64,000 nucleotides of DNA from Strigamia acuminata (taxonomy: Eukaryota). Positions 14,883-62,158 of the stretch are shown here, one piece after another. The stretch covers positions 4,588,001-4,652,000 of the forward strand of contig OX442314.1 of NCBI GenBank assembly GCA_949358305.1. Reading direction: 5' to 3'. The position numbers and the translations under genes are program-made. Below the pieces are notes generated by a model. It worked only from the letters and a program-made list of their open reading frames with translations. It was not told where the DNA came from and made no database searches. Each line of letters begins with the position of its first letter. Position 1 is the first letter of the stretch.

Positions 14883-14901
14883 AATCTCGGTGGGACCTCC
14901 A
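14883..14901 (-). promoter_or_regulatory. Primer binding site of element C, tRNA-Gln
   Basis: TGGAGGTCCCACCGAGATT, complementary to the tRNA-Gln 3' end (AATCTCGGTGGGACCT-CCA). Confidence 0.9.
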
Positions 14902-14903
14902 CG

Positions 14904-22198: not shown

Positions 22199-22209
22199 CA
22201 TTTGACAAA

Positions 22210-32681: not shown

Positions 32682-32987
32682 TGTAAATTATAAATTCATT
32701 ACGCAGAAAAAATATTGTGTGGTGTTGGGCTGAGTTGCTAGCTGTAATTTCTGCTCTTAGACACTTGCTGAGTTCAAGGTGAACTGACAACTCGTGTGTA
32801 TACACACATAGTTTCCTGGCAACATGTTGGTTGGGTGTAGATCATTAAAGTTTCAGATATAAAAGCTGCAATAAATAATTAATGTTTAGTTTATTGCAGT
32901 TTCAAACCCATAAAACCTTGTATTTGGGCGGGCTTTCTTACCAAGGAAGGAACTCATAAAATTTGTGTTTTATGTTGTTCTTATAGC

Positions 32988-36762: not shown

Positions 36763-37393
36763 TGTGGTGATTCGGCATCACCTGAAGAAGTAATTAGCGG
36801 TGATTATTGTGTTACTAATACTCGCCACTAGAGCGCGCTAGAAATACCGACTAGACTGACTAGTCTCGTGTTTCTGCGAACCTGCATAATCGGAAGGATT
36901 TGCATATGACGTCATTTCCGGTTAGTATATAACGCCGATACTTGACCGGAAACGACACTACAGTTACCACATTTCAGCAAGAGCACCATTTACCTCACCT
37001 TTCAGGCCGTTTCACGGATTGATCGAGGACCGGTGCCCGCTGACCATCTCAACTGTACAACAGCCACATTTATTTAGCGTAGCCAATCTACGCTAGAATA
37101 AATATTCGAACGATATTCGTTTAATTCGCACGAGAAAGCGAATTCTCGCGTGTTCATAATAACACGTGGAAATACCCTAGACAACAAACATAGACCACGC
37201 GTAGGACTAAACAATTGGATCCGCCATTGTTTAGCGGCAACTCGTATTCGCAGCCGAATCCGAGGACCAACACAGAAAACATCTTGACTTATATTTGTAT
37301 TAGTAAGCGTGTTTTAATAAAGCAGTATTTGAAATATATTGTATTCCCGAGTGTATTATTTATTATCTTTAACCACAAAGTCGAATCACGACA
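36763..37393 (+). repeat. 5' LTR of element B
   Basis: Repeat of 47922-48552. Contains ATTTGCAT, TGACGTCA, TTTCCGG and TATATAA at 36898-36932. Confidence 0.97.
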
Positions 37394-37395
37394 CG

Positions 37396-37413
37396 TGGGG
37401 GCCTGTCCGGGAT
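37396..37413 (+). promoter_or_regulatory. Primer binding site of element B, tRNA-Pro-like
   Basis: TGGGGGCCTGTCCGGGAT, 2 nt after the LTR end. Confidence 0.88.
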
Positions 37414-37485
37414 AGATTTGCTAACCTTAAGACAATACTTTAAATAATAACCGGGATCTTTCGATCGATCATTATATCGTAAGAA

Positions 37486-40332
37486 ATGACAAAAACTACC
37501 GCAGAAGATAGAAAAAGGCGTAACGACGAAAAGGATAGAAAAGAAGCCGAAGAAATCGAACGCCAAAAAGCGGAAGAAGCGAACCACGTGGAACCAGAAG
37601 TCGAGACTAACTCGACTAAAGTTTCAACGGAATCATCAAGTGAAAGCCTTCCCCTTGCAAGACAACTTCCGTTTACGGGAGGCGAATTCGAAGGATCAGG
37701 AAGCTCTCACGAAGAAAACGGACTAAATAAATCGTTCGAAAACCCTCGATTCGGATTGAAAAGCCCAAGACCTGTCGAAAAGGATCCCAGTGAAATGGAT
37801 CTAATGACTCTTCTAAATAAAGCGGCAAACACAAGTGCCGCAATGATCAACGAGGCTGCCCGCGCAGACCAAGCAAGAACAGTCGCGTTAGAGAAGAAGA
37901 AAAACGAATTGATGGAAGATTTAGCCAGAGAGCATCGCGAGAAATTAGCTGCCATGGAACAGAGCTTGGCACAAGAACACCAAGCTAAACAAATGGCACT
38001 GGAGCGCGAGCTGGCTCGAGAATTGCTCGCGAAGCAGAAAATAATCGAACGAGAAATGGCAAAGGACTGCCAGATCCGGCCGCCAAGCAACGGGTTAAGC
38101 CAGCATTCGGAGCCAAACTCCGTACAGAGCTCCCCAGAACGGTCTCACACAGCTAAGGAGCTGGTAGCCAAAGCAATAGAAGTAACTCGGGTAGCTTGCG
38201 CACACGGCATCGAGATCGACCAGGACAAGGATCCCTACGCAGAGCTAAGCCGAGTAATCGACCTAGTAAATCAGAGGACTGAAAAACGATCGGCAGATAA
38301 CACGGCCAGACGCGGAGAGAAACGACGTCGGGTCGGAGCAGATCGACAACAGTCCGAGACAGGCGGCGAAGCAACGTCAGACAGCGAAAGTATCGACTCT
38401 CAAGCATCTCACGGCAGTATCCGAGTCAACGGACTAGATAGCATCTTGAACGAATCGGACGAAGTCAAAGGAGAACTGTACGAGGCGTTTATACAAGATA
38501 GGAGGAATAATCAGGGCGCGCAATCATGGGCAATAAAAAACTCATTCGCAATGAAAACTGGCCAAACCAGTAATAACAACCCAGGCGACCCTAACGCAGA
38601 ACTAATCAGATGTATAAATCAGAAGAATCAAATACGCAACGAAGTAGGTCAAAATAAACTGGCCATGCCGACGCTCGAGGAGATTAACGCAGTTAAAAAT
38701 CACCTCGAAAAGAAACACGCCGCCGAAGCGTATGCTGGGAGAGATTCCTACGTTTTTATCAAAAAAACGAACGAAGGCCTCACGGGGACCCGACTGGACG
38801 ATCTGATACCGCCCGGAACAAAGTTGAGCCAAACCTCCGCTCCAGAGAAAGCGAACCCAGATAACTCAACCATAGCGCAAGACCTCACGAATAACCCGAA
38901 CACCGCGGGATCATCAGGGAAAACGTCGTTCCAACACAATCAGTTCGGACTGACGGGCAACGGTACGCATTACCCAAGCCTCCCTTCCGACAATCCACGA
39001 TCATCACCGCTGCTTAGTGAGACTGACTCGCTAAGCAACCAACTACGGACGATGAGAGACGAACTCCTTCAGGCCATGGACCAAAAGCTTCAACAAAGCC
39101 GTGGCCAAGAGACCGAGGAGGACGATCGAAGCGAAGGATTGTTGAAACGTTACTCCGCAGACCGATGGCTGTATTCTCGCAAGGATAACAACATCAAGTG
39201 GACGACCCTGAGACTAATTAAGTTCGACGGATCCTGGAACGCCGGCAACTTGTTTTTGGACGAAGTCGCCCTGACGATTAATCGCTTAGGAGCGGAACCC
39301 GACGAAATGGTTGCACGCGGAATACCAGAAATGCTGATCAACCGGGCCCGAAACTGGTACGCTGATGTCCAACCCCGAAACTGGGAAGATTTCGTCATAA
39401 AGTTCCACAATCAATATGGCGAGACGAGCCAAGAAATCCAGAAAAGAGTAAGCTCTATGAAGCAAGCTCCCGGGGAAACTCTGAGGGAATACGTACAACG
39501 AGCCGACAGCCTGTTCCGTGAAATGGACAAACCATTTGACCAACACGCTCAGAAAGCTCTCTTCGAACAAGGACTAAACGAAACCGCAACCAAAGTCCTA
39601 CGAGAAATGAACGCTCCTAAGGGGGATAATTTCAAAGCCATCCTAGCTTTCGTCGAGAAGAAACACACCGAAGTAAATGCTCGGTATAACGAAAATCTGA
39701 CAAAAGAAGAGCGAGCTCTAGGAGTGGCCCGACAGCAACGAATACAGGAGCGCAGCATAGACTCCACTAAGCTGCTCCAATCGCGAAATTATCTAAACGG
39801 AAGTATAGAGCCACTCCCCTCAAAGAAAAACCAACAAGCTTCTAACCCTTTACCACCTCCGAGTAAGGCCTATCGCACGCAAACTAACGCCGCCGAGGAA
39901 AAGTCGGAAGACGAAGTAAGCGAAGACTCTGAGCAATTCTCGGAAAGCGATGAGGCTGACGAAGGTATCAACGATGTGGTACACGCAAACATGGGGAAGG
40001 AACTGGCGCCCAGCTACCGACCTCAGATGAAGTCCAGAAAATCGGAACACCACAACCCGAAAACAGAGGCGACTTCCGAGAAGAAGGACTACCCCAAAAA
40101 ACCTTTTGAGCGGGAGGGAAAGAAGAAAAGCCCTTGTAATTTCTGTAACGAAGACGGCCACTGGCGTCAGGCCTGCCCAAAACTGGCAAAGAAAAAAGCC
40201 GACGACAAGGCCGCAGAGCGTGAGGAGCTAGTGAAATTGCTCGCGAAGGAACAAGACAAAATCTTGAAGGAACTCACCGCCAAACTCGACAGTATGACAA
40301 AAAACTGGAACTCGCGGGCGGAACAAAAGTGA
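37486..40332 (+). CDS. gag: Gag of element B (948 aa)
   Basis: Capsid-like 'ARNWY..WEDFVIKF..MKQAPGETLREY', zinc knuckle CNFCNEDGHWRQAC. Homologous to Gag A. Confidence 0.93.
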   Translation: MTKTTAEDRKRRNDEKDRKEAEEIERQKAEEANHVEPEVETNSTKVSTESSSESLPLARQLPFTGGEFEGSGSSHEENGLNKSFENPRFGLKSPRPVEKDPSEMDLMTLLNKAANTSAAMINEAARADQARTVALEKKKNELMEDLAREHREKLAAMEQSLAQEHQAKQMALERELARELLAKQKIIEREMAKDCQIRPPSNGLSQHSEPNSVQSSPERSHTAKELVAKAIEVTRVACAHGIEIDQDKDPYAELSRVIDLVNQRTEKRSADNTARRGEKRRRVGADRQQSETGGEATSDSESIDSQASHGSIRVNGLDSILNESDEVKGELYEAFIQDRRNNQGAQSWAIKNSFAMKTGQTSNNNPGDPNAELIRCINQKNQIRNEVGQNKLAMPTLEEINAVKNHLEKKHAAEAYAGRDSYVFIKKTNEGLTGTRLDDLIPPGTKLSQTSAPEKANPDNSTIAQDLTNNPNTAGSSGKTSFQHNQFGLTGNGTHYPSLPSDNPRSSPLLSETDSLSNQLRTMRDELLQAMDQKLQQSRGQETEEDDRSEGLLKRYSADRWLYSRKDNNIKWTTLRLIKFDGSWNAGNLFLDEVALTINRLGAEPDEMVARGIPEMLINRARNWYADVQPRNWEDFVIKFHNQYGETSQEIQKRVSSMKQAPGETLREYVQRADSLFREMDKPFDQHAQKALFEQGLNETATKVLREMNAPKGDNFKAILAFVEKKHTEVNARYNENLTKEERALGVARQQRIQERSIDSTKLLQSRNYLNGSIEPLPSKKNQQASNPLPPPSKAYRTQTNAAEEKSEDEVSEDSEQFSESDEADEGINDVVHANMGKELAPSYRPQMKSRKSEHHNPKTEATSEKKDYPKKPFEREGKKKSPCNFCNEDGHWRQACPKLAKKKADDKAAEREELVKLLAKEQDKILKELTAKLDSMTKNWNSRAEQK

Positions 40333-43300
40333 TTCCACATCCGCTCGCGATAACTTCGAAAACGATGGACCTTACTCTGGTGGAAAAACAAATTAAAGAA
40401 ATGGAAAAATTGTTGGAATTCTTCGAGGAAGCTGCCAACGAGGAAGTCACAACTCCAACCAAAAAACGGAAATTCGAAATTAGAGACGAAGACGGTATAG
40501 CCAACGCTTTCATGACTTTGCCGCTTGACCAAGGGGCCAATCCTCTTAAAAAGCGAATACTTCGTTGCAACCTATCAACAGAAGCGAAGAGCGTACTGGC
40601 TAAAATACCAGTCTCTTTCGGCAAAAAGGTGTTAATGGGACTACTCGACTCGGGAGCGGATCAGTCGTTTATCTCCACCGACTTATTCGAATCACTCGAA
40701 GAAAAAATACAGAAAAAATTACGGGGAATGAACGAGAACATTCGAGTTCTTACAGCAGCGGGAGAAGTTAGAGCAGTGGGGACGTTATCAACCGATTTTG
40801 TATGGGAAGGAGGCACGATTAAGCATTTCTTCATCGTGTTACCAACCCGAGACACAATCCTGCTGATAGGAATGGATTTGATGGAACGGATGAACATCCA
40901 GCCCAACCCAGTCACACGTTCGTGGAATTACATCGACAACCACGAGGACCCACGACTACCCATAATACCTCCGGAACTCCTAGACAAAGCTAAGGACGAC
41001 GAGGAATGGGGAGGAGGCGAAATTAAGAAGTTCATCCAAGACTATAATTTTAAGTCGTTTAATACTATCCTCCAAGAGGAGAATTTAATACATAATCTGG
41101 CCATGGACGCCAATCTTGGAGAAGAACAAACGAAACTCCTCGAGGAAATGCTCAAGAAGCACTCGAAGAACTTAAATAAAGATCCAGGAAAGACTAGTTA
41201 CGTAATGCACGAGATCGAATTGGTTACGGGAAAACCGGTGCGAGTACCTTTTAAAACTATGAATCCCCAAAAGAGACATATCGTAAGAACGATGTGCAAC
41301 GAGTTGCTCGAAAAAGGGATCGTGTCGCACGCCATCGGAGAATATGGAATGAGGATTGTCCTCGTCATGCGACCAGGCTCCGAACCGCGCCTCTGCATCG
41401 ATTATAGACCTTTAAACGCCATAACCGTCATCGACCCCATCCAAATGCCGTCAATAGAAGCGATTCTACGGGAGCTCGCCCCATTTAACTGGGTCACGAC
41501 CATGGACTTGTCCAAGGGTTACTGGCAGGTTGAATTGCGGGAAGAGGATAAAGAGAAAACAGCTTTTTGGGCACCACAGGGTCGACTGATGTTTAATGTA
41601 ATGCCCTTCGGGTTAGTAAACGCACCCGCCACCTTTCAAAAACTAATAGAAAAAGTTCTCGGCGATGCCTTACACAAATACGCATGGGCTTACCTCGATG
41701 ATATAGTCATAGTCTCCCAAACTTTTGAAGACCACCTGATACACGTGAATGACGTCATGGAGCGACTCACAAAAGCCGGTCTAAACATTCATCCAGGGAA
41801 AAGTAAATTTTGCCGCAAAGAATTGGCATTCCTGGGTTACACAGTCGGAACAGGTGGCCTATCCATCGACCCGAAAAAGACCCAGGCGATTAGCCAGTTC
41901 CCCGCCCCGGAAGATGTAAAAGGAGTCCAACGTTTCATGGGCATGGTGAATTTCTTCAATCGATTGCTCCCAAATTTGGCAGACGTCGCGGCACCCATCA
42001 CAGATCTGTTACGCAACGATAAAGATTTCGAGTGGACTGACCACTGCGAAACATCGTTTAACAAGATAAAACAAATGCTGATCGATGTAAAACGAATTCC
42101 CCTACCAGATCTTAATCGAGAATTCACTCTTCACACCGACGCCAGTCGAATTGGCCTAGGTGCTGCGTTGCTTCAAAAGCATGACATCGACGGAGTAGTG
42201 TTAGAGGTCCCGACGATGTTCATCAGCCGGAAATTACAAGCAGCCGAAAAGAATTATAATGCGACAGAGTTAGAATGTCTAGCCGTCGTCTGGGCAATCC
42301 GAAAATTCAGACCATACCTGGAATTTACCAAGTTCAACGTACAAACTGACCACGAAGCACTAAAGTGGTTAATGGCGTTGAAGGAACCGTCCGGAAGAAT
42401 GGCTCGCTGGCAGCTAGAATTAATGGCTTGTGACTTAATCATTGAATACCGACCCGGAAAATTCAACGTCGTGGCAGACGCCCTCTCACGAGCCCCAGCT
42501 TCAGACCCCGAAGACGAGACCGACTGCGGAGAGGACGACTCACGCCTCTTCTACTGTCCGAACCCCGTCCGAAAATGGGAATTTAAAAAGCTAAACGAAT
42601 TACCCAAGGAGAAACTCGAGTCAGGAGACCAAAATTATTACAATTATTGGCTCCGAGCATACCAGTCTGTCAAGGACGCTCACCCAAATTACGAGCTAAC
42701 GATAGAACCTCGAATCTCCGACAAGTACGTTCGAGCATTCGTCGCCCACGTAAGCAAGGGGACGAATAGTAAGCCGCCCACCAGGGACGAATTAATAGCC
42801 GCCCAGATGACAGACGACTTCTGTAAAACTTATCGAAACTTCATCACAGATAAAAAATTTCCCGACGAGAATTTCGACGAAATCCAACGCGAAGAATTCG
42901 AAAGAGAAGCCTCCACGTACTTAATCGAGGATGGACTTCTACTAAAACACCACCCGAATTTCCGCGATGATCTGACGGAGACGGGAACTTCGATGAAAGT
43001 CGTTATACCCAGGAGTCTGCTGACAAGGTTTCTGTGGATGGTCCACGGACACCCGCTCGCCGGACATTCTGGAGTGGCCAGAACGATCTACCGAGCAAAT
43101 CAACTTTATTTCTGGCCAAAAATGACCCGAGATATCGTTCGTTTTATTCATCACTGCCCCAGATGCCAAGCGTGCAAGCCGAGGACGCCCAAGAGCTACG
43201 AGAGAATCTCACTTGGCCCTTTCGCACCCTTCGATTGCTGGAGCGTGGATTTAATGGGCCCAAAGCCCACGTCATCCAATAAAAACAAATATATATTAGT

Positions 43301-44411
43301 AATCATGGATGTCGCGACTGGATGGCCCGAACTCTTTCCAATGGAGAGACCAACTAAGCAAAAAATCATTCGATGTTTGTACGAAGTGGCGCTTCATTTT
43401 GGATTCCCTCGAAAATTAATCTCCGATAATGGACCACAATTCGCGTCAAATTTGTACAAAGACTTCTGTAAAAAATTCGACATCGAGACATCATATACAT
43501 CAACCTATAATCCACGGGCCAATCCCGTCGAAAGGTTAAATCGCGATATAAAATATGCACTAGCAATTTTCACCGATGTTCACTCCAGCTGGGACGAATA
43601 TCTTCGTGAAATTGCCTTCAGCATCCGCACAACGATCTCAAGGAACCGCAAATTTTCTCCCGCGTTTCTAAACTTCGCTCGGGAACTCAGAGTACCCTGG
43701 GACCCACGAATACCGGAGGAAATACTGGAAATTGATCCTGAGAAGCCTCATATTTATGTCGACAGACTGGAGCAAATAATTTCGGCCACTTATCAGCACA
43801 TGATGTCACACATATTCGACATGAGAGATCGTATTAGCATTGCTGGAAAGGATCGGCCCTTCTGCAATTTTAAAGTCAATGACCTCGTCTGGAAAGACAC
43901 ACATATTCAGTCCAGCGCCGATAAGGGGATCCACGCAGGCTTAGCAGACAAACGCGACGGCCCGTACGTCATACTCGAAGCCCACGGCGGAAACGCTTTC
44001 AAGCTAAAAAGATTGGCAGATAACGTTAATTTTAGATCGATCCACGCCCGAGAATTAACTCCATACTTACCTGAGTTTCCTCAAGAGGCTTGGACGGAAT
44101 ATCAGACGAAACCAGCGCAAAATCCAATTATTCGCGACATGTTTTTAGATGAACAAACTGGCCCAACCAATTTAGTTCAAGATGAGTCACACGAAGCGGC
44201 CGACGCCCCGGATGAGATTTCGGAGAGGGAGGAAATAGTCGAAGAATCTCCTAAAAAAGGAAAGCAATCAAACAAAAATAAGACTACAAGAATCCTCAAA
44301 CCTGATAAAATATACGGTATGCGTCGACACAAGCCAAACCCGTTCATAAAAGACGGGAAACTCGTCGGAAAACAAAAAGCGACTCCGGCCATTGTCTCAA
44401 ACAATCGATAA
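40299..44411 (+). CDS. pol: Pol of element B (PR-RT-RH-IN), entered by -1 frameshift at AAAAAAC 40299-40305
   Basis: LLDSGADQSF, YLDD, TDAS, HHCC, SDNGPQF, GPY motif; uninterrupted 1360-aa ORF. Confidence 0.97.
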   Translation, partial: KKLELAGGTKVIPHPLAITSKTMDLTLVEKQIKEMEKLLEFFEEAANEEVTTPTKKRKFEIRDEDGIANAFMTLPLDQGANPLKKRILRCNLSTEAKSVLAKIPVSFGKKVLMGLLDSGADQSFISTDLFESLEEKIQKKLRGMNENIRVLTAAGEVRAVGTLSTDFVWEGGTIKHFFIVLPTRDTILLIGMDLMERMNIQPNPVTRSWNYIDNHEDPRLPIIPPELLDKAKDDEEWGGGEIKKFIQDYNFKSFNTILQEENLIHNLAMDANLGEEQTKLLEEMLKKHSKNLNKDPGKTSYVMHEIELVTGKPVRVPFKTMNPQKRHIVRTMCNELLEKGIVSHAIGEYGMRIVLVMRPGSEPRLCIDYRPLNAITVIDPIQMPSIEAILRELAPFNWVTTMDLSKGYWQVELREEDKEKTAFWAPQGRLMFNVMPFGLVNAPATFQKLIEKVLGDALHKYAWAYLDDIVIVSQTFEDHLIHVNDVMERLTKAGLNIHPGKSKFCRKELAFLGYTVGTGGLSIDPKKTQAISQFPAPEDVKGVQRFMGMVNFFNRLLPNLADVAAPITDLLRNDKDFEWTDHCETSFNKIKQMLIDVKRIPLPDLNREFTLHTDASRIGLGAALLQKHDIDGVVLEVPTMFISRKLQAAEKNYNATELECLAVVWAIRKFRPYLEFTKFNVQTDHEALKWLMALKEPSGRMARWQLELMACDLIIEYRPGKFNVVADALSRAPASDPEDETDCGEDDSRLFYCPNPVRKWEFKKLNELPKEKLESGDQNYYNYWLRAYQSVKDAHPNYELTIEPRISDKYVRAFVAHVSKGTNSKPPTRDELIAAQMTDDFCKTYRNFITDKKFPDENFDEIQREEFEREASTYLIEDGLLLKHHPNFRDDLTETGTSMKVVIPRSLLTRFLWMVHGHPLAGHSGVARTIYRANQLYFWPKMTRDIVRFIHHCPRCQACKPRTPKSYERISLGPFAPFDCWSVDLMGPKPTSSNKNKYILVIMDVATGWPELFPMERPTKQKIIRCLYEVALHFGFPRKLISDNGPQFASNLYKDFCKKFDIETSYTSTYNPRANPVERLNRDIKYALAIFTDVHSSWDEYLREIAFSIRTTISRNRKFSPAFLNFARELRVPWDPRIPEEILEIDPEKPHIYVDRLEQIISATYQHMMSHIFDMRDRISIAGKDRPFCNFKVNDLVWKDTHIQSSADKGIHAGLADKRDGPYVILEAHGGNAFKLKRLADNVNFRSIHARELTPYLPEFPQEAWTEYQTKPAQNPIIRDMFLDEQTGPTNLVQDESHEAADAPDEISEREEIVEESPKKGKQSNKNKTTRILKPDKIYGMRRHKPNPFIKDGKLVGKQKATPAIVSNNR

Positions 44412-44596
44412 AAACAACCACAGGGGGGACACCTGTTACGTCCCACAATGCGTCTTAATTGGCCAAACCAATCAAAGATGACATGAGACTAATAGTTAAC
44501 CTCTAACCCGACCCACATTTATCACTGTCATCTCCGACTAAGCGACGATCACCTCGAGGCAGCCGTAAATCAAAGTATCAAATTAATTTCCGAAAA

Positions 44597-47500
44597 ATGA
44601 AAAGAAATGATTGGAAGAAAGAAATTGAACGGGCCGTAAACAACGCTTCCGAGGATGACGATGAAGATCAAGTGGATTTGTTACAAATCATTGTAAACAA
44701 CGAAGAGGGAAATTGGGACGAACCCAATGAACCCGATGTCCAACCCGACGTAAGTAAAAAAAAAAAAAAAAAAATAGAAAAAATTCAAGTATCGATAATC
44801 AAAAATACGAAATAAGTTCGTGGACTGACCACAAACGAAAAAATAATTTAACTTTAAGTGACAAATTATCAAAATTAATCAAATACCGAAAGAAAAATTA
44901 ACTTCAAAACACGTGGTCGAAAAGCACATGGCCGACCATGACGCCATCTTGTGTTAGACGAAAGAATCTCTACAAAAATATGACAAATTAATCAACGATC
45001 CTAATATATTTATTAATATTCTAATATTTAGGACGGATATCGCACTACGTGGGGGCAAATCGACCCGAAAAGAGTTTCCGCAGGCAGCTTATGGCGCGAA
45101 GTAATCCCCATACTGTTCCGACAAGCGCTCGAAGAAGCGGTCGACTTTGAACCATGGAAAATTCGCCTTTTATTGTCCCGTGCGATCAGCCGCTACTGGT
45201 CCAGCCAGCAAACGTTGATCCACTACATGCCGCGCCAATATCAAGCAGCTTTACGGGCAGTTATCTCGAGAAATATGGACCCGCCAGCGCCAATCCCGAA
45301 TCCACTAATCCGAGCCGCCTTTCCTGACGACCAGCGAGGATGGGACGTTTACGAACAATGGCGCGACGCCGAAACAGATGAAGAAAAACACCAGATCCAT
45401 ATGGCATATTACGAAGAAGTAAGGCGGACCGCACATGACGAGGTTTTCAATTATCTACAGCCGGACGGTTACTCGACCGAGGAAATCAGGTTTTGGCTCC
45501 TTCAGATCCGCGAAGACCGGCCCGACCGCCCAGATTGGAGACCGAGACACGGTTTCATCACCTCGCAACGAGCAATGCATCAATTGCATTTTTTGGGCTT
45601 CTTTGGTCGCAAACGCCAGAAAGCCGAGAAACGTCTCTCCAACGAGCACGACGAAGCAGGCTGCTCAGCGAAGAAACAATGCCTGGACAAGCCAAGCACT
45701 TCCAGCAGCGCGCAGAATAAGAAACCCGCGACAGAGAAACGCCTGGCCAAACCAAGCGCTCTCTCTCGCCTGGGAAAGACGGAGGCCCCACAAACATCGC
45801 GATTTCAATCCAGGGACGCCCCGTCAACCAGCCGAAGAAGAGAAAATGTGCGCGAACGCCCCGACCGTCGAGAGGATCAACGCAGACGCGATAGGAACCA
45901 AGAAAATTGGGACGATTATCGTAGAAATTACTTCCGACGGCGGGAAGAAAACAAGGAATCCTGGAATAGACATCGAGAGGAGTTCCTACGCGAACGTGAT
46001 GAGAAAGCCCGACGTGAACGAGAGAACCTCCGGTTACAGGACGAACGAAGAAGGAGAGGATCGGAGAGTCGCGCACGTTCATGGAAAGCGTATCGCGAAG
46101 AGGAATTACGACAGCGAGATAGGAGACGCTGTGAAGTCATCAAATCGATTTGGGACAGTCCCGAACCGATGAAGATTGACGACGAAGTGATTATCGACGA
46201 GGTCCCCGAGCAGAAGAAGATGTATACTCAGGCGGATCTCCTCGCGGTGGTTATGAAATACCAACAAATGCAGCCGAAACCAGTCTACCGCCCGACCCCC
46301 TCGACCGCCTCGAGTCTAGAGACGGCGCCAAGTGCTTTCATCAAGCCGGAACTCTCACAGACGAGAAGCGTAACATCCAGCGTCAGCCTCCCAAGCGCCT
46401 TTCGCAAGAAAGTGATAATCGGCGCACCGACACTGAGTTCTGAAGAACAACTCAGACATCGAGAAGCTCGCTTTGGACCGACCAAAGTCGAACCTCTCCC
46501 AACTATCCCCGAAGCCTCAACTTCAACGAGAACTCCAATCGTTTGGGACAAGCCCGAACCGGAAAAATCAAGACGTCTGGTCAGATCTGTGCCTCAGCCA
46601 ACGACATCCACGGGACCCAATCCGATGTTGCCAGCCCCAGCAGTCATCCAAGCCTCGACTCCAATCAACCCTTCGGAGGTAACGTTGCAACAGTTTCTGG
46701 AGGTAACGACCGTGGAGCAAGCTAGAGCGCTTTTGTGCGAGATGGACTCCTACCAACAAAACGTGATCCAAAACGTCATCACGAACCTTCAGCGGATCTC
46801 AATTGAATATACGCAGAACAAAAATCGGGATCATCCAAATTGGAATACGAGGATCGTGGTTGCCATTACCGACTTGATGTCGATTTTGCTGGCCGCCGCC
46901 ACCTTCCGAAACGCACGTGTTGCTGTAGCAGCCTGGATCGTGGTGGCCCACGAGGGTTTCCAAGTTCCGCCGGCTCTCGTAGACAGCTGGACACGTCTGG
47001 TGCCCTCTGCGGCAGTAATTCGAGCCCAAATGGTGGCCCAGGACCCGGATCCAGAGGCCTCCTACCAGAACGTTCGAGCGATAATTCAACGCTCGCTCCC
47101 GTCACCTTCGGCGGCCACGCCAACCGCAGAGGCTCCGGTTCCCAGGGATCCGACGCCTCCTCCTCCGCCTCCGCCGAGGGAGAAGGGACCCTCCGAGCCA
47201 CTGGCCGAACCAGTCCCGCTCAAGAAGAAGGAACCCAAGAAAAAGATGCTCCTCCCAAAGTCGAGCAAGAAGGTTCCAAAGACGACAGAGCCTCAAATCG
47301 CCGCCAGACTCAGGATGTACTTCCCAGGGTTGTCCTTTACGAAGGACACGGAGGCAAAACTACTCCAGTCTCCAGATCGTGGCTATTCTCTTTACGTCTG
47401 GATGAAGGACGCTATCGAAGCCGGAGCCGGAGGCGAGCGCTTCATCCAACATCAACGACTACTCCGAGCCCATCGCGCACCAACCAGCATCGCCGAGGCC

Positions 47501-47722
47501 CAAAGAATCCACCACACCAATCAAGGTATGTCGGCCTTCCTGCCACCAATTTGGGCCCACGAACGAACGGGAAATCCGCTGGAAGCGCCGGGACACCTAC
47601 GTTTCTACTTGAATGAGAGCGAAGACCCCTCGGACTACTCTTCAAGACTGACCACATCTCCCAACCTGGACGAACCAAGTTCGGAAGATAAGCCGAGTTA
47701 TGCCGATAACTTGAAGAAATAA
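44597..47722 (+). CDS. ORF3 of element B, unknown function, predicted spliced (44597-44749 + 45032-47722, about 947 aa)
   Basis: Acidic 51-codon exon ends GAC|GTAAGT. Acceptor ttctaatatttag|GAC opens a stop-free frame that runs into the 849-aa ORF. Confidence 0.85.
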
Positions 47723-47921
47723 GTAATTAGAAATCGTGACGAGAAGACTGTCTTCTCCAAACTAGGAAATTATTATTATTTGTTTGCGTATCAATTATTT
47801 AAGAATGTAAAATATTTTATGCACCATTCATCATCATTTAAATAAAAAGATTATTTTATGATTAGATATTGTTCCTCCTTTTATTTAAGGGACCCCGATG
47901 ATTTATTCTCGGGGAGGGACG

Positions 47922-48552
47922 TGTGGTGATTCGGCATCACCTGAAGAAGTAATTAGCGGTGATTATTGTGTTACTAATACTCGCCACTAGAGCGCGCTAG
48001 AAATACCGACTAGACTGACTAGTCTCGTGTTTCTGCGAACCTGCATAATCGGAAGGATTTGCATATGACGTCATTTCCGGTTAGTATATAACGCCGATAC
48101 TTGACCGGAAACGACACTACAGTTACCACATTTCAGCAAGAGCACCATTTACCTCACCTTTCAGGCCGTTTCACGGATTGATCGAGGACCGGTGCCCGCT
48201 GACCATCTCAACTGTACAACAGCCACATTTATTTAGCGTAGCCAATCTACGCTAGAATAAATATTCGAACGATATTCGTTTAATTCGCACGAGAAAGCGA
48301 ATTCTCGCGTGTTCATAATAACACGTGGAAATACCCTAGACAACAAACATAGACCACGCGTAGGACTAAACAATTGGATCCGCCATTGTTTAGCGGCAAC
48401 TCGTATTCGCAGCCGAATCCGAGGACCAACACAGGAAACATCTTGACTTATATTTGTATTAGTAAGCGTGTTTTAATAAAGCAGTATTTGAAATATATTG
48501 TATTCCCGAGTGTATTATTTATTATCTTTAACCACAAAGTCGAATCACGACA
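47922..48552 (+). repeat. 3' LTR of element B
   Basis: Offset 11159 from the 5' LTR, preceded by the PPT. Confidence 0.97.
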
Positions 48553-49070
48553 AGATTACTGTGTGATATGTTATGTATTTATCACGCCAGATGGCGTTAC
48601 TGTATTATAGTTTAAATGTACTATTAAAAGAAGGCACTAGTTGTTGTTTTTGAACTGTCATGGCACCTTCACTCATTTTATCAGCCTCCACAATTTAGAC
48701 AACTAATAACACATGGTGGCAGCGGTAAACACACTGGAAATTGGTTGGAAAGATCAACTGGGTGGAGTTACGTCAATAAAGACGGTAGGCAATTGAAAAA
48801 TTGGATATTTGGGACCGAAAACGACGTGCGATCGTGAGCAACAGAGGCGACGTTGATGCGCGAGCTCAAGCACACCGATTTTACGCCGAGTATTCTTCGA
48901 GATTCAACAATATTCGACTATTTTCGACAATTTTCGATTATTTTCATCTGTTGGACCCGGCAAATGTGCCTTTTGATTGAAGAAGACAAGGAATTGTAGC
49001 TTTACTCATCATTGAGCCCATACAGGAGGACCAAGAGGAGGAGAAGGAAGAGAAAAACATTCCACCAGTC

Positions 49071-49934
49071 ATGGCAAAAGTGGAGCACAGCATTTGCAAA
49101 CCACCGGATGAATTTGATTTCAAGAATGCAGCAGATTGGCCAAGATGGATTGCCAGATTTGAGTTATTTCGCTCCATGATGGATTTGGACACCCAGCCAG
49201 GCAAAAAGCAAGTGGCTTCACTCCTTTACCACATGGGAGATACAGCAAATGACATTTATGCTTCATTCAAATTGGCGGATCCGGACAAGCACGATTATGC
49301 AAAAGTGAAAGCAGCTTTTGAGGCGAAATTTGTTACGACAACAAACGTGATTTATGAGCGAGCCATGTTCTACAACCGCCAGCAAAAGGACGGTGAAACA
49401 ATGGACGAGTACATCACGGCATTGCATACGGCGGCCAAACACTGCAATTTTGATGCATTGTATGACGAGTTTATCCGCGATAAGATTGTGAATGGCATTC
49501 GGGACAAGGCGATGGCAAAGAAGCTTCAACTTCAAAGCAACTTGACATTGGCGAAGGCTATCGAGATGACGAAACAATCCGAGCAAGTCAATTCGCAGTC
49601 GAAAACATTGCTGGAAGCGACATCGACCAATAAGTCTGTGGATCGAGTTGACTCCAAGAAGGTTCAACGATCCAACTTCTGGAAAAAGAAGACTGAACGG
49701 CCAGATGACAGCGGAAAATCGAGCAAATCGGACGGCGGTCCCAAGACACAGCCGAGGAATGCATCGAAAAACTCAAGTAGTTGTGGCAGATGTGGCAGCG
49801 GATTCCATCCAATGAAGGATTGCCCAGCAGCAAAGTTGACATGCCACAAATGCAATCGCAAAGGGCATTATGCGAGAGTATGCCAAGGCGCAGCAGTTCA
49901 AGGGGTCGGCGAAGCAACGGACTCTTACATTTAA
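49071..49934 (+). CDS. gag: Gag of element D
   Basis: 'WPRWIARFE..FYNRQQKDGETMDEY..IRDKIVNGI' and Cys/His knuckles CGRCG..H..C / CHKCNRKGHYARVC. Confidence 0.9.
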   Translation: MAKVEHSICKPPDEFDFKNAADWPRWIARFELFRSMMDLDTQPGKKQVASLLYHMGDTANDIYASFKLADPDKHDYAKVKAAFEAKFVTTTNVIYERAMFYNRQQKDGETMDEYITALHTAAKHCNFDALYDEFIRDKIVNGIRDKAMAKKLQLQSNLTLAKAIEMTKQSEQVNSQSKTLLEATSTNKSVDRVDSKKVQRSNFWKKKTERPDDSGKSSKSDGGPKTQPRNASKNSSSCGRCGSGFHPMKDCPAAKLTCHKCNRKGHYARVCQGAAVQGVGEATDSYI

Positions 49935-50411
49935 TCAGTCAACGGAGTAGCCAGTCGACAGGGGAGATGGCATGTGTCGGTTGAGATCAGGAACGCAAGA
50001 ATTACATTCAAGGCAGATTCCGGCGCCGAAACAACATGTATTCCCGAAGAAGTCTACAAGGACTATTTTTCCGATAGAAAATTACGGAAACCCGAGCTGA
50101 ACTTGCATAATGCAACCAAAGGAAAAATGGAAACATTAGGAATGTTATAGGAGAAAATCGAGTACCGAGGACGGTCGAAATTAACAGCAATCTACGTTGT
50201 TCGAGGTTTAATGCAGCCATTACTGGATGGCGACACCTGCGAAGAGTTGAACATCATCAGACGTTGCGGGGTTGATGCGGTAAAAACGGAGAAGACACCA
50301 AAGATGTCATTCGATCCGAAGACGGCTTACCCGAAGCTATTCAGCGGGTTGGGACGCGTCGAAATACCGTACAAAATTTGACTGAAACCTGATGCAAGTC
50401 CATATGCGTTA

Positions 50412-53090
50412 ATGACACCTCGAAGAGTTCCGATTCCTCTGCTAAACGAGATAAAAGCAAACCTCGACAAGATGGTATTATTGGGAGTTATCGAACGGGT
50501 AGAAGAACCAACAGATTGGTGTTCTGGGCTGGTTTTGGCACCGAAGCCCGACGGATCAATTCGTATGTGCGTGGATTATGTGAGGCTTAATCGCTACGTG
50601 ATGCGAGAAACACATCCGATGCCCGTTACTGAGAACGTGTTGGGTCAACTAGGGAAAGCAAAGTATTTTTCAAAGCTCGACGCCAATCATGGCTTTTGGC
50701 AGTGTCAGTTGGATGCCGAATCACGGCTGTTGACAACATTCATCACTCCATTTGGCCGATACATGTTCAAGAGGCTTCCTTTCGGCATAAATGCAGCGCC
50801 TGAATTCTTTCAGAAGAGGATGAGTGAAATTCTCGAAGGATTGGAAGGCAAGCAAGTCAACGTTGATGACATATTGGTTTATGGCGACACCATCGAGGAA
50901 CATGATAGACGTTTACGTGTGGTTCTCCAACGCTTGCTAGAAGCGGGAATAACGTTGAACGTAGCGAAATGCGAGTTCGGGAAAACCAAGATAAAATTCC
51001 TGGGACACATCATCGATCAAGCCGGAGTTCATGTCGATGATGACCGGATAGTAGCCATTAGAAAAATGGGCAAACCCGAAAATGTGTCGGAATTAAGAAG
51101 TCTACTTGGTTCAGTCAATTACCTAGGTAGATTCATCCCGAATTTGGCAACAAAAGCACACCCGTTAAATGAACTATTGGGCGGCAAGAATGAATTCCGA
51201 TGGGGGACGCAGCAAGAAGCGGCGTTTGACGCCATTAAAGAGGAATTATCAAAGGCCCCAACATTAGCGTGGTTCGATCCTACGAGAGAGACAGTGATCA
51301 CAGCGGATGCGTCTTCGTACGGAGTCGGTGCAGTGCTTAAACAAAAGCAAGAAGACGGCAAATTCAGGCCGATTGCCTACGCGAGTAAGACCTTAACGAA
51401 ATGTCAGAAGAATTGGGCACAGATAGAAAAAGAGGGATATGCTCTCGTATGGGCATGTGAGAGGTTCAAGAACTTCATCATTGGGATTCCCGTCTGTCTG
51501 GAAACTGACCACAAGCCGTTGGTACCCATCTTAATGACGAAGGAACTCGACGAGATCACTCCAAAATTGCAACGGATGCGACTTCGACTACAGCGGTACT
51601 GCTACACTGTCAAGCACATTCCAGGCAAAGAGTTAGGCGCGGCTGATGTTTTGTCAAGGCGTCCATTGCCAGACACTGAAGAAGATGGCGACATTGAGCA
51701 ACGACTCAAGGGTTGCGTGACAGCTTATGTGCAGCTGATTACCAAGCATCTTCAAGCAACTGACCAACGCTTGGGTGAAATCATTGATGTCCAGAACAGG
51801 GATCCGATTTGCATCAAGCTTTGGCAGTTCAGTCAACATGGATGGCCAGCCAAAGATTGGTTACCACAAGGGTTAGGAGACTTTTGGCAATACCAAGATG
51901 AGATAACCATAGAAGAAGGACTACTCATGAAAGGGTCAAGGATTGTGATCCCAGCGGAATTACGAGAATTCATACTGGACAAGATCCACACGGGACACTT
52001 AGGAATCACGAAATGTCGAGCCAGGGCAAGGTCTGCGGTTTGGTGGCCAGGGATTTCGAGGGACGTTGAAAAACGCATTTCCACATGCACAGAGTGTATC
52101 AAGGAATCCTCAAATCCTCACGAACCACTCATGCCAGCGGAATTCCCGAAACGGCCATGGCAAAAAGTTGGCATGGATCTTTTCTATTTGGATCGTCAGT
52201 GGTATTTGCTCGTTGAAGATTACTACTCGCGATATCCAGAAGTCAAGACGCTGACATCGCTCAAGGAAAGCGAAGTGATTTTATTCCTAAAATCGATATT
52301 TTCGCGACATGGGACACCAGAAGAAGTGGTCAGCGATAATGGAACGCAATTTGGAACTCTATTGAAATCAGAGTTTTCCATATTTGCGGCGGACTGGAAA
52401 TTTATCCACACGACATCGAGTCCGAAATATCCTCAGACCAATGGGTTCGCAGAGGCCGGGGTCAAAGTCATCAAACGGATTTTGAAGAAATCTAGCGATG
52501 CTTTTAAAGCACTTCAAAGTTATCGTGCGACTCCACTGGCAAACGGATTCTCACCCGCGGAGCTGCTGATGGGGCGGAAAATAAGGACCGAAGTTCCGAC
52601 CACCGCAACCCAATTGATGCCTAAGACTCCAGATGCGAAACTTCTTCAGGGGAAGGAGGAGAAGAGAATAGCAGATCAAAAGAGGAATTTCGATAAGCGA
52701 CATCGAGCGAAGGATTTACCAGACCTGCAACCAGGCGAGAAGGTTTGGATCATCGATTTGAGGCGATCGGGCGTCATCGAGAAGAAGGCGGGACGACCGC
52801 GCTCATACATTGTTAACCCCGATAAGCGAACGGTGCAACGCAATCGATTCCACCTCATCCCACTGAAGGACGATTCGGACAAGCCGGACGACATCGATCC
52901 AGGGGACAGCCAAGCAAATGAGTCCAGTGAGGTCGAGGAACCACCAATTGAACAACAGGCACCAGAGACGGCCGAGATTCCGGTTCCAGTTCGACAATCA
53001 CCAGAGACGATGCGAACATCTCCAAGACCAATGGTTACGAGGAGCGGAAGAGCGGTCAACAAGCCAAGTCGGCTCATTGAAGAATGCTAA
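50412..53090 (+). CDS. pol: Pol (RT-RH-IN) of element D
   Basis: 'KLDANHGFWQ', 'LPFGI', 'NVDD', 'ADAS', 'HTGHLGITKC', 'SDNGTQF'. Confidence 0.93.
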   Translation: MTPRRVPIPLLNEIKANLDKMVLLGVIERVEEPTDWCSGLVLAPKPDGSIRMCVDYVRLNRYVMRETHPMPVTENVLGQLGKAKYFSKLDANHGFWQCQLDAESRLLTTFITPFGRYMFKRLPFGINAAPEFFQKRMSEILEGLEGKQVNVDDILVYGDTIEEHDRRLRVVLQRLLEAGITLNVAKCEFGKTKIKFLGHIIDQAGVHVDDDRIVAIRKMGKPENVSELRSLLGSVNYLGRFIPNLATKAHPLNELLGGKNEFRWGTQQEAAFDAIKEELSKAPTLAWFDPTRETVITADASSYGVGAVLKQKQEDGKFRPIAYASKTLTKCQKNWAQIEKEGYALVWACERFKNFIIGIPVCLETDHKPLVPILMTKELDEITPKLQRMRLRLQRYCYTVKHIPGKELGAADVLSRRPLPDTEEDGDIEQRLKGCVTAYVQLITKHLQATDQRLGEIIDVQNRDPICIKLWQFSQHGWPAKDWLPQGLGDFWQYQDEITIEEGLLMKGSRIVIPAELREFILDKIHTGHLGITKCRARARSAVWWPGISRDVEKRISTCTECIKESSNPHEPLMPAEFPKRPWQKVGMDLFYLDRQWYLLVEDYYSRYPEVKTLTSLKESEVILFLKSIFSRHGTPEEVVSDNGTQFGTLLKSEFSIFAADWKFIHTTSSPKYPQTNGFAEAGVKVIKRILKKSSDAFKALQSYRATPLANGFSPAELLMGRKIRTEVPTTATQLMPKTPDAKLLQGKEEKRIADQKRNFDKRHRAKDLPDLQPGEKVWIIDLRRSGVIEKKAGRPRSYIVNPDKRTVQRNRFHLIPLKDDSDKPDDIDPGDSQANESSEVEEPPIEQQAPETAEIPVPVRQSPETMRTSPRPMVTRSGRAVNKPSRLIEEC

Positions 53091-54105
53091 GAAGACTTTT
53101 CATTTTATTCGTTTGTTTCGTTCCAATTATTACTTTGTAACTGGGAGGGGATGTGTGATATGTTATGTATTTATCACGCCAGATGGCGTTACTGTATTAT
53201 AGTTTAAGTGTACTATTAAAAGAGGGGACTAGTTGTTGTTTTTAAACTGTCATGGCACCTTCACTCATTTTATCAGCCTCCACAATTTAGACAACTAATA
53301 ACACAATTACATTTTTACAATAACTTACCTACGCACCTACCATTATAACAGCACATGATCGATCTAGGTGCATTGGTGGCTGAACACGGTAATATATGGT
53401 AAGGGGATTTTACTTTGCATGCTAATGGAGAAGGTAGTAATGGCTTGTAATTTGCATGTAGACTTGCAAGATAAATTTGTGGGTAAGTAACTTGTCACTT
53501 TAGTCAATAATTGGTGCAGAAACATTTGGATTGATCTTATGCAGTTCTAGATTGGACAAATTGGCCACCCAGTTTGAGGCAAAACCAATTATAAATGTTT
53601 AAAAGATAAATGTGCAAAGAAAGTATTGACATTCCCAATGCTAATCCGACAATGCTGCCGACATCGCATAACAAGCGAGATATTGGATAATTTAGATCGT
53701 CTATTATAGTCTCCTCAAAACTGTTAGCTGGCCGAAGCTTTATAAATGTGTACATATTATTTTTGAATTTACTTTCATGCTCGATAGTTTGGTAATAAGT
53801 AATTTTGCAGGGTTGTTTACAGTTGAAAAGTTTTTTGATTGGAATTGTAATTGCGAAAATACTGGGAATGGGCACTAGTAATGTCTTCCAACTTGTTGCA
53901 AGGTGGCAAACTTGGTGATGACATGTACGGCAATCTGAAACAAGCATAGTTAAATTAAACTGAATTCACAAAAACTAAGTGCCTGCAAAAAGTTGAGTTT
54001 TCGGTGTTAGTTTGGTTTTGCGGTGTCACTACCTTAAATGGAGCGGTTGATGACTTGCTACTTGCAAGTTAACGTAATGGTTGGTACAAACTTCCGTATA
54101 CGCTT

Positions 54106-57136: not shown

Positions 57137-57676
57137 TGTGACTGGATATGGTCTTACCCGCACAGTATATGAATTTACTACACGGGTGGGACGCATACAT
57201 CACGTAAAGACGATACAGAGACCCCAGATTGTTGGGTTTTGGCCTTTAATCGTTGTCTAGGGGTTTAGGTCTCTCGTCTCACTGTATGGAGTGCTGTTAG
57301 GCACACTACACTGGCAACCGTCCCATCGCACACAGGACGTGAGTCCCATGGGCGACGTGGTCGGTTACGTCGGACGAACATGCTGCCGCACTTTTCTCTT
57401 ACAGCCCATGTGGCCACTCACGGAGGCTGTGGCAGGCACATCTTCTTGCCACTGAGCGTCACAGTGGTGAATGGTGAGAGTGGCAGAGTCAGCAATTGTC
57501 TCTGCTGTGGTTAGGATCGTGGCAGCTCATCCTCGGCTCTCCCAGCAACGTCTCTCTCTTACCACACCACTTTCTCCTCCCCTGCTAAGCCAGTCCACTC
57601 CGTGAGGGGGACGGCTTGGGGCCACTAGGCGGTGTGTGGAGTGACGCCAGTCACCTAGGGTGGCCAAGCGGTCACA
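57137..57676. mobile_element. 540-bp solo-LTR-like insertion; related copies at about 28380-28749, 33930-34017 and 54544-55070
   Basis: TGTGAC...GTCACA ends with 4-bp TSD GTCT. The paralogous site near 30130 is empty. Confidence 0.8.
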
Positions 57677-60600
57677 GTCTCTAATGTTTATTCTGGCGGC
57701 AGTTCTCAGCATATGTTGTAGGGATGTCAATAAATTTGTCTGGGTTGCATATCTGTTTTTCACAAGCACAACAGTCATTTTTAAATTTACCCAATAAATA
57801 TGCCAACCAATAGGAGTTTGTTGTAAGTTTTTGTAAACGAAGTATTATCATATTCTGTTGAACTGATAACGTATCCATGTAAATTACCTGTGTTAACTTG
57901 TGAACAATAACCAAATGGAAGTAGGACAAGACTCGTTGCTATGTTTAGTATTGTTGTGTATCCATAATAATGCTGTAAATATATATTTTATACACTTTGT
58001 ATTGTAAGTTTTTTAAATTTGTATACCTTGCTCAACCCGTCTTTAACACTCATTATTCGATGGATATTTAGGGTCTTCCAAATATCTTCTTACGACAATT
58101 TATTGTTGACCAATTGCCATGGCAATATGTTATTGCAAGTTTTCTTTGTCTGTTTGAGTATCTGCAACCTGGCTAGTTCCATCTCATCACTGCGATTTTC
58201 ACCACAGAGTGTGACGGTTGGAAACTCCATGTAGCGCCGTTGATCTATGGTAATGATTTTTGATATGGGTTCTTCAAGGTAGTAGTTTAAACGAATGTGC
58301 AACAAGTATAGAGTGAATCCTGCACTAATTAAAACGAACATGAATTTAAACTTTCTTAAAACTCCGTTAGTTTTGATTTTCTCTTCACTCTCAGTGACTT
58401 CTTTTTTGGATTTTTCATAAAGTTGTCGAATATCCTCAAGGTTGGTAGTTTTGCGCGTAGTTGTTACAACGAAATACAAATACCATGTGATTTCAGGTAA
58501 TGAAAGTAACGATAAGCCGAGAAATAGTCCCAAATTGCCGCCTAAATCAGATAGTAAAGCAATAATGTCGTAAGTGAACCGCTCTTGATACATGTTGACT
58601 TTCTCATTGGTTAGTGCTAAAGTGAAAGACATTATTTTTTTATCATCTGCTTTGCCGGAGTCTGTGTAGGGTGTAAAAGCCATTTGATGGCACGGAGGTC
58701 GACAATCACAAGTAGTAATTGGGTCTGTGGTGTCAATTAATTTATTGACTATGCCATACTGATGGTTTACAGCAGCTGACCATTCACAAAGTGGTAAGTT
58801 CATCTTCAGAAAAGGAAATCTTAAAAAAAAAAATTAATAAAATTAGTTTGGTTTGTTCAGTGGATTTGATTTGAGCAAAAATGCAGTGCTTAAGTTTGTT
58901 TGATTTACCAAAAATCATTAGCATCACTTGTTAGTAAATTAAACAAATTGATCATAAAATGTCATTTCTTGGGTTAAGTAGGAAGAAATTGCTTTTACCT
59001 GCAGGTTAGATTGTTTTCTAATCTTTTGAACAAGCACTTTTGGTAGCAACCTCTGTATTCATTTTCACTTGAGCACGGGCGTTTTGATGAATTGAGAAAC
59101 ACGTACTGAAATATAAAGATGACTTAGAATAGTTGTTTCATTTTAATTGAGTTTAAATTTTACTTTGTCGTAACTCAAATTGATTTTCACTGCTGTACCA
59201 CTGGCTTTATTTATGTAAAAGTAAATTTTTCCAAAATTATATACTGATAGCCTAATCTATAAGTTAGAAAAAGAAAAAAAATTTTGTTTATCTTGTTGCT
59301 ATTTGATTGTAATTGTTTTTATATTACCCTGAACGTAACTATTGGGCAGACGTCTTCATAAAACTTTTCAAAATTCACTGTTAGTAGTTTTCCAACAAAA
59401 GATTTACTAGAATTCTTATCTGAACACAGTGAAAAGAAGATTAATTTAGTTTTAGGCATAATAAGTTTTGTACTCAATACAATTTCAGATAGCGGATATC
59501 GAATGGACAATACGGTCATCATTACAGTAAAATGACAGCGCCAAGCTTTAACAATATTAAGTTCATTGGGTCATGCTGTTAAGCGAACACAGCAAGGCAA
59601 TTAATTAATCACTTACGAAATCGAAATGCTGAGCACATTCCAAATGTGCTGTCCATTTCCTCCCGGACAAAGCTTTTGTTTGAATATCCCTTTAGAAGTG
59701 TAAATGATTAGATTTTATTCTTTATGAAAATTTTTGATTTTTGCTTTTCTTTTACTTTCATTTTGATGCTCACTATTTCAGGTGTCAAATTAGTTGCTTT
59801 CCAAACTTCGTTCATTTTGTAGGTTGGGCTTGCCATCAGAGTTTTCATCATGTTTATGCAATGTAATGGATGAATTCGACCTGATTTATCTAATTCACTA
59901 CTCTTATTCCAAAGCCTGGCCATTTCTTTTGTATTCGTACTGCAGATTGCAACGTATGGTAAAACGATGTCATCTGATCTACTCGATACATCAACAGCCG
60001 TAGGATAACTTAAGTAATACATTACTCTGTTGTATGTCTGATAAGTGAGAATGCATGTGCAAAATAATAACAAAAGAAGCCATAAAGCGTGAATCTTGCT
60101 CCAACGTCGTTTCTTGTTAATGAAATCATTTAAACCAGTTAAACCGCAGATCGGTTTGTTCGCATCTTCTCTCATTAATTGATGAACTGTCAGACGTAGT
60201 TTTCTGTTCATTTTCATTCCTTAGGTTATTCGCACAACAAATGAGTATATGGATTGAGTGGTTAATAATTACATTTATGATGTTGACAAATGTGAATATC
60301 AACTTGTGAGTTTTGAAACCTGTACGCAGAAGAGATATTGTGCGTTTTTGAATTGAGTTGGTTGTTTCTGCTGTCGACTTTTGCTGAGTTCAAGGTGAAC
60401 TGACAACACGTGTGTATTCATACATAGTTTCCCAGCAACATACTGGTTGATTATAGATAAGTATAGTTCTCTATTCGCTGCGTGCTAATCAGGCATTTCA
60501 GGAGTTAATTGGATAAAAATGAGTTGAATTATTGATGTTGTGACACGGAAAACCAAGAAATACTGATATTGACTGTTGGAACTTTGTGCAGTACAGTAAA

Positions 60601-61016
60601 TGTCCAATAAGCGTTTTCAAAATATTTTAATCCGTTATTTTAAGATTTATCTTGAGATTTAACTCGTTTAAAATATCTATTAAAAAAAATACCCTATTTT
60701 CCCGGTTAAGAGTCGCCCTCGAATTGTAGCCGCCCTCGAATAATAAAAATAAATAATAAAAAAACACTATTAATAATAACACTAATAATAGTTACAATAA
60801 GTTGAATATATCTGCCATATATGACTTTTTTGTGTGGGGACTGTCTCGACGTTTTCGCGGATACAGTTGTCGCGTACTACTTGGTATAGGTTTAAGTAGC
60901 TAACATGTGATACTTTACCTGTGATCTACTTTATGCAAATACCCAAATAAATACTAAATGTATGTAAATGAACAAAAGGTTTTATTCAATAGGCTTGAAG
61001 GCCTTAAAATACACTC

Positions 61017-62046: not shown

Positions 62047-62158
62047 CAGTTATATTCTAAAGTCGACTTGGTCAGAGTTGAACAAAGTGATGTGTTCTTT
62101 GGTCTCGATGAATTGTTATAAAAGTTGTGATAAGTGGAAGTCGGTCAAGAAGCAGCCA

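Follow-up and report, generated by a model that had tools for sequence, protein, structure and literature searches.

Sense introns placed in LTR retrotransposons are lost on transposition, a behaviour that underlies a classic reporter (PMC12786077). Plant Ogre elements are described as carrying an intron of about 274 bp between their GAG-PROT and RT regions (PMC6317226, PMC12786077), and the Cer1 element of C. elegans has after pol a non-Env ORF, CERV, whose 517-aa product is reported to be needed for export of the genome RNA (PMC10309623). A study cited in PMC11963269 refers in its title to an accessory gene of the maize element Grande with a promoter of its own.

Here we describe two elements, A and B, from Strigamia acuminata, in each of which pol is followed by a third open reading frame (ORF3). 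Considering all the evidence, we lean slightly towards a reading in which ORF3 is a non-envelope gene with a likely intron, which would be expressed from its own short mRNA and internal promoter, while the genome RNA would stay unspliced.

Two sister elements in the Strigamia acuminata window

The window, by which we mean the whole stretch of DNA analysed, comprises 64,000 nt of contig OX442314.1 (positions 4,588,001-4,652,000, forward strand). It is animal DNA, with DEG/ENaC channel genes that contain short AT-rich introns. The host genes include a pair of DEG/ENaC (ASC) paralogues with about 89% identity, at 30050-32720 and 57600-60300 (minus strand), each apparently with two channel-like halves, and related fragments occur near 22200-22600 and 53550-53975. 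The window also holds two long, near-perfect palindromes (61004-62060 and 24492-25071; 501-nt arms, 99%; the smaller one nested), which are probably foldback or MITE-type elements, and, at its end, the integrase ORF of another LTR element (62420-63676, minus strand).

Element B spans 36763-48552 on the plus strand (11,790 nt), and paired LTRs, a primer-binding site, a polypurine tract and a 4-bp target duplication, AGAT, identify it as an LTR element (Table 1). Its gag comes first and is followed by a pol in the order PR-RT-RH-IN; the same order is found in the pieces of A, and both are Ty3/gypsy elements (Metaviridae) and not env-carrying ones. The gag ORFs are long in both (about 950 codons in B, about 1010 in A), with extended, low-complexity N-terminal halves. 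The empty B insertion site is present as a joint in contigs of runs X1 and X2 of one study; these contigs, which thus behave as DNA, were our source of variation among copies. Their coverage is far deeper on B than on its flanks, which suggests that B exists in many copies, coverage being no copy number. An unrelated third gypsy element, C (48560-53305, plus strand), is inserted just after B; its 154-bp repeats are 97% alike, it is without a third ORF, and it served as a control.

Element A lies on the minus strand. A nested element (7389-16817, minus strand) divides the 3' part of its pol from the part that encodes the protease; this insertion has identical 1914-bp LTRs, a 4-bp target duplication and a doubled primer-site region. 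No gag or pol match was found in this nested element, which holds one basic ORF of 501 codons (9898-11403) that lacks a Pfam match and contains two similar stretches of about 35 residues; immediately upstream of this ORF there are promoter-like words and what may be a short UTR intron. The nested element may be a non-autonomous one with an accessory gene only. A duplicated stretch truncates A at its other end, near position 958, and supplies the last 22 or so nt of its ORF3; no A 3' LTR lies within the window. The stretch (window 1-958) is 100% identical to 22520-23477 and includes host-like DNA. We rejected this 958-bp repeat as an LTR of A, as it begins within ORF3 and has neither polypurine tract nor TG, and regard it instead as the outcome of a segmental duplication, of a rearrangement or of an assembly join.

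Between the two elements, RT-RNaseH is 62% identical and integrase 52%. A FastTree tree joins them as a long-branch pair (support 1.0), separate from their 120 best database relatives, among which there were no named reference elements, and two spot-checked top database matches are 45-46% identical to B over RT-RH. Rather than being two copies, A and B are separate families within a single gypsy lineage that is poorly sampled.

Table 1. Positions of the parts of elements B and A, numbered along the window.
Element	Feature	Position	Strand	Description or basis
B	5' LTR	36763-37393	+	631 bp, TG...CA; 1 difference from 3' LTR
B	Primer-binding site	37396-37413	+	17/18 nt identical to that of A (20597-20580)
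B	gag	37486-40332	+	Retrotrans_gag (Pfam); weak zinc knuckle
B	pol (PR-RT-RH-IN)	40224-44411	+	Pfam; -1 frame, overlaps gag
B	pol-ORF3 spacer, candidate internal promoter and 5' UTR	44412-44596	+	Promoter putative
B	ORF3 exon 1, acidic ATG mini-exon	44597-44749	+	153 nt, 51 codons, 33% D/E
B	Predicted intron, phase 0	44750-45031	+	282 nt, GC 0.27, GTAAGT...CTAAT..TTTAG, in-frame stops
B	ORF3 exon 2	45032-47722	+	896 codons
B	Polypurine tract	47911-47919	+	Sequence
B	3' LTR	47922-48552	+	LTR pair comparison
A	Primer-binding site	20597-20580	-	Sequence
A	gag	17463-20486	-	zf-CCHC, ORF
A	pol, 3' part	3783-7388	-	RT-RH and IN in two ORFs, in-frame stop between
A	pol-ORF3 spacer, candidate internal promoter	3545-3782	-	TGACGTCA palindrome at 3723-3730; promoter putative
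A	Candidate 5'-UTR intron	3479-3544	-	66 nt, GTAAGT...CTAG
A	ORF3 exon 1, acidic ATG mini-exon	3440-3351	-	30 codons, 27% D/E
A	Predicted intron, phase 0	3350-3082	-	269 nt, GC 0.31, GTAAAT...CTAAT...ATAG
A	ORF3 exon 2	3081-937	-	714 codons, first Met is codon 243

A predicted intron at the start of ORF3

In both elements an acidic ATG mini-exon is separated from a long second exon by an AT-rich stretch, and the mini-exon and intron borders proposed for A and B in an earlier note, together with their phase and, in B, the donor and acceptor motifs, were all upheld by our analysis (Table 1). Each stretch has U2-type features, namely a GT donor, a branch-like CTAAT, a host-type AG acceptor and a frame that is restored on removal, the joined ORF3 frames reaching 947 codons in B and at least 744 in A. 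On the 11,790-nt sense strand of B the word GTAAGT has a single occurrence, at 44750; A likewise has one in its 11.2 kb, at 3544, and GTAA(A/G)T is found only twice in A, at 3544 and 3350, which are its two proposed donors.

Splice sites were scored with a matrix trained on 12 hand-annotated host introns of 54-197 nt (six positions in each of the two DEG/ENaC paralogues), which had been annotated in one channel gene, with 589 codons open across the six, and then mapped onto its paralogue. The training set is small and the matrix partly scores AT content, with leave-one-out scores of -6.5 to 15.9 and with 9-11 bits also assigned to positions 5471, 4342 and 20192, which fall within gag and pol. 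On this scale the predicted acceptor of B ranks first of 801 AG and its donor second of 414 GT, while in the 3' part of A the donor at 3350 ranks first of 288 and the acceptors at 3479 and 3082 rank first and third of 439. The best acceptor score in control element C, among 331 AG, is 3.6. The top-ranked donor of B lies 4 nt downstream of the predicted one, at 44754, and opens a frame of just 91 codons, against 947 for 44750. A run of about 19 A (44756-44774) right after B's donor creates this competing site, and X1 contigs break there, at 44744-44786.

Change points in GC content, sought in windows centred on the predicted borders, fell no more than 1 nt from three borders (both acceptors and the donor of B); for the donor of A the distance was 20 nt. 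A hand-made acceptor filter, which is not independent evidence since it was written after the sites were known, gave two matches in A, both of them predicted sites, and two in B, one of them predicted. As for the additional 66-nt intron that had been suggested for the 5' UTR of A, its acceptor (3479) is the best in that part of the element, but its donor (3544) ranks just 24th of 288, the second rank being held by a GT 2 nt upstream (3546); 66 nt is also the length of one host intron pair. From these features we consider it very probable that the AT-rich stretches of ORF3 are spliced out as spliceosomal introns.

Comparison of the two ORF3s bears on where the protein begins. BLASTP finds a weak C-terminal match alone (E 0.01), and the alignment is colinear. 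In four tests of 300 shuffles each, none did better than the C-terminal block, and the whole pair was not bettered by any of 100 in two tests. For the N-terminal region, global alignments were bettered by 0/300 (full) and 1/300 (local) shuffles, the local alignment alone not being significant (10/300 and 12/300). By this comparison the predicted ORF3 proteins are distant homologues, about 25% alike. The earliest block that they share begins with exon 2 codon 26 in B and codon 20 in A, such that the introns can be said to occupy the same place, as had been claimed, to within about six codons, but not exactly. Ahead of its first Met, exon 2 has 65 open codons in B (Met at codon 66) and 242 in A, and pol ends 620 nt (B) and 700 nt (A) upstream of exon 2. 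The shared block precedes any in-frame Met, and the start must thus come from upstream. The ATG exon begins 185 nt (B) and 342 nt (A) downstream of the pol stop, and additional non-coding exons may lie further upstream; the two mini-exon peptides have no detectable likeness (764 of 1000 shuffles score equally) and have acidity in common.

Variation among copies of B points to a gene that is maintained. Among the 40 variants listed, of 822 in X1 and X2, synonymous changes make up eight of the nine in ORF3 (expectation 0.33, P about 0.001), nine of 11 in pol and three of four in gag; these variants show that the predicted ORF3 of B is under purifying selection. Of 56 indels, 12 were listed, and the sole one in predicted coding sequence is an in-frame 3-nt deletion at 44600, within the mini-exon; the remaining 11 are 1-2 nt long and lie in LTRs or UTRs. 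The earlier note had called for a search for intron-less copies; none was seen among the 15 of 30 X1/X2 joints listed. As no listed joint removes the intron, an abundant intron-less form of B is unlikely, and rare ones may exist.

The ORF3 protein

Exon 2 of B encodes an Arg/Glu-rich predicted helix at about 257-384, within which about 277-374 is the sole part with pLDDT above 70, along with Pro/Ser/Thr-rich linkers, Lys-rich patches and the conserved C-terminal block (about 750-835). No Pfam domain was found in ORF3, and no credible sequence relatives were found among 7993 and 1782 candidates or in Atlas; six further matches were rejected, all of them repeat proteins matching in 4-6 short stretches. 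In searches for related loci, viral contigs gave a single match (27% over 84 residues) and metagenome contigs none. The AlphaFold models are of low confidence (pLDDT 40 and 54), and a fold search with them gave no hit at E <0.001, the best (Z 6.6) being designed helical bundles.

The N-terminal exon is acidic and non-hydrophobic, the two ORF3s contain four and five Cys, and a mid-protein hydrophobic stretch in B (KD19 1.84 at 608) is unmatched in A (1.11). We rejected the reading of ORF3 as an Env, as there is no signal peptide, cysteine-rich ectodomain or C-terminal anchor, the C-terminus of A being cut. Such a make-up would suit a soluble, probably nuclear, nucleic-acid-binding protein. Because of its Arg-rich helix and basic patches, the absent Env features and an analogy with Cer1 CERV only, we propose, with weak commitment, that it might be a regulator that binds RNA in the nucleus and allows the unspliced genome to evade splicing or to be exported.

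Where the ORF3 mRNA begins

The intron had been taken as a sign of a subgenomic mRNA, possibly spliced several times as in complex retroviruses. The sequence gives good support to a predicted spliced, subgenomic ORF3 mRNA alongside a packaged genome that stays unspliced, but not to multiple splicing of the retroviral kind. Given splicing, it is moderately probable that the mRNA would start in the pol-ORF3 spacer rather than in the LTR. The spacer of B offers no good acceptor before the mini-exon (best score -0.7 at 44542; 2.6 at 44148, inside pol) and no 5'-UTR intron, while the short upstream intron of A would place an upstream exon inside the spacer. With no strong spacer acceptor in B and a spacer exon implied in A, an internal promoter fits at least as well as a donor in the LTR.

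The TGACGTCA palindrome of A's spacer is also present in B's LTR and occurs five times in the window, and a 10-mer shared by the two spacers and found nowhere else is marginal (90 of 2000 shuffles equal it). Each intron has a GC-rich core in which CACGTG, which we take to be an E-box, lies 10-30 nt from a presumably YY1-like word (the window has 21 and 20 sites of this sort), a pairing that was chosen after the fact; the cores of A and B have no significant words in common (114 to 426 of 1000).

An alternative close to the earlier note's model keeps the intron and has the ORF3 mRNA start in the 5' LTR and be spliced two or three times, a leader donor being joined to an acceptor before the mini-exon and the local intron being removed thereafter, as in insect env and Cer1 cerv, which provide precedents (PMC12992720, PMC10309623). 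B does have GTAAG sites in its LTR (37303) and directly before the gag ATG (37479), but these rank 27th and 41st of 414 and face a spacer without a strong acceptor. In A the strong acceptor at 3479 could accept an LTR donor directly; however, the leader and gag of A contain no GTAAG site, though four GTGAG, and the local donor 66 nt before 3479 is more easily explained by a spacer exon. An LTR start is rather unlikely in our estimation.

Why the intron persists

For the reading that we prefer, a short ORF3 mRNA from the spacer beside an unspliced genome RNA, the cause of intron survival is the weakest step. Most natural exceptions to intron loss are safe, splicing there removing gag-pol. Removal of the A/B intron would spare gag, pol, the primer site and the polypurine tract, so an intron-less daughter should replicate, and retention in two old sister families makes likely a poor splicing of the long RNA, selection inside the intron, or both; we favour both.

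We envisage that splicing would join the mini-exon to the long exon 2 on a separate short mRNA, and that no splicing would take place on the full-length genome RNA, which would transmit the intron. The mini-exon would be a cap-proximal first exon on the short RNA only, and would be recognised there alone. Recognition across an intron fades near 200-250 nt, and both predicted introns exceed in length all 12 host introns. The GC-rich intron core may in addition hold promoter-downstream elements, such that loss of the core would also cost ORF3 expression. First-exon definition fails to explain the 66-nt intron of A, since an intron of host minimal size should be spliced on any RNA. That candidate intron hints at a wider suppression of splicing on the genome RNA, and it is here that a CERV-like role of ORF3 could enter.

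An alternative is that the intron is spliced but kept mainly as a structured RNA for export or packaging of the genome, with spliced genomes as dead ends. The A intron is indeed predicted to fold into a row of hairpins (z -7.8, 0/200 shuffles), with its donor buried in a local hairpin (GT pairing 0.95), and four longer host introns are unremarkable (z +0.3 to -1.3, no better than shuffles). The B intron, however, has z -0.8 (34/200 shuffles as good) and a mostly unpaired donor, other windows in A also reach z -5 to -7, and Rfam gave no match. Folding that is strong in A and not in B does not support a conserved RNA element, and we hold this explanation to be quite improbable.

The weakest alternative, and to us a highly improbable one, is that the AT-rich stretches are spacers or promoters, ORF3 starting inside exon 2 (at the first Met or a non-AUG codon) and the GT and AG being there by chance: the junctions are predicted from sequence alone, the TAG of an acceptor is an in-frame stop at which the ORF starts by construction, and the matrix prefers AT-rich DNA, but donors, acceptors, CTAAT, phase 0 and an acidic ATG exon would have to coincide twice, with GC steps at three of the four borders, and the conserved Met-less stretch of A would be left to explain.

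Spliced ORF3 mRNA from an internal start thus remains our preferred reading. Its furthest extension would be an undescribed gypsy lineage with a complete host-style gene after pol (promoter, UTR intron, coding mini-exon and first intron), which has kept dispensable introns through deep divergence because the orphan protein blocks splicing of the element's genome RNA or exports it. We think this extension unlikely; if true, ordinary introns and a new protein family would together make up a feedback loop.

Comparison with known systems

Retained introns and spliced non-env ORF3s are both known, from Ogre (PMC6317226) and Cer1 CERV (PMC10309623), which reduces the surprise of finding them here. 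The prediction for A and B resembles Ogre in that a dedicated intron is kept in an LTR retrotransposon, the Ogre intron being described as spliced in a subset of transcripts only (PMC6317226, PMC12786077). CERV is made from a five-exon mRNA that takes its start and first exons from the gag region (PMC10309623), whereas in A and B both the ATG exon and the predicted intron, which is non-coding and host-like, are situated entirely downstream of pol, with predicted proteins of 947 and at least 744 aa.

The env of insect errantiviruses is likewise an ORF after pol whose start is supplied through splicing by a short upstream exon; there, however, that exon lies before or in gag and the intron is gag-pol itself, while the ATG exon of A and B follows pol, and errantiviruses make an F-type Env that has a signal peptide, cysteines and a transmembrane anchor, unlike the ORF3s described here (PMC12992720). 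Oikopleura Tor3b/4b share with A and B a pol-ORF3 spacer and an internal promoter, shown there and putative here, but no sign of splicing is reported for the 5' RACE products of their env, which encodes a membrane glycoprotein (PMC4402516). The Vesta and Juno elements of bdelloid rotifers are, like A and B, gypsy-like elements of an invertebrate with captured non-envelope ORF3s; those ORF3s have recognisable domains (GDSL, DEDDy, TM), unlike ours, and the word 'intron' is absent from the main text of that paper (PMC5408684).

We found no report of a coding ATG mini-exon and intron wholly after pol in the literature searched, in which subscription papers were mostly not included. Removing the A/B intron would cost no known replication part, yet both families keep it. 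If splicing is confirmed, these elements would offer a natural test of how a retroelement distinguishes genome RNA from mRNA, and would indicate a new family of accessory proteins maintained by purifying selection. Annotation by ORF alone miscalls such genes, as in A, where the first Met lies 242 codons in. To judge from their predicted gene structures, A and B likely work through alternative splicing of the Cer1 and Ogre type combined with a likely internal promoter of the Tor type. The parts are each known singly, namely a spliced third ORF (insect env, Cer1 CERV), a retained intron of about 274 bp (Ogre) and an internal ORF3 promoter (Tor); their combination was not found in the literature searched.
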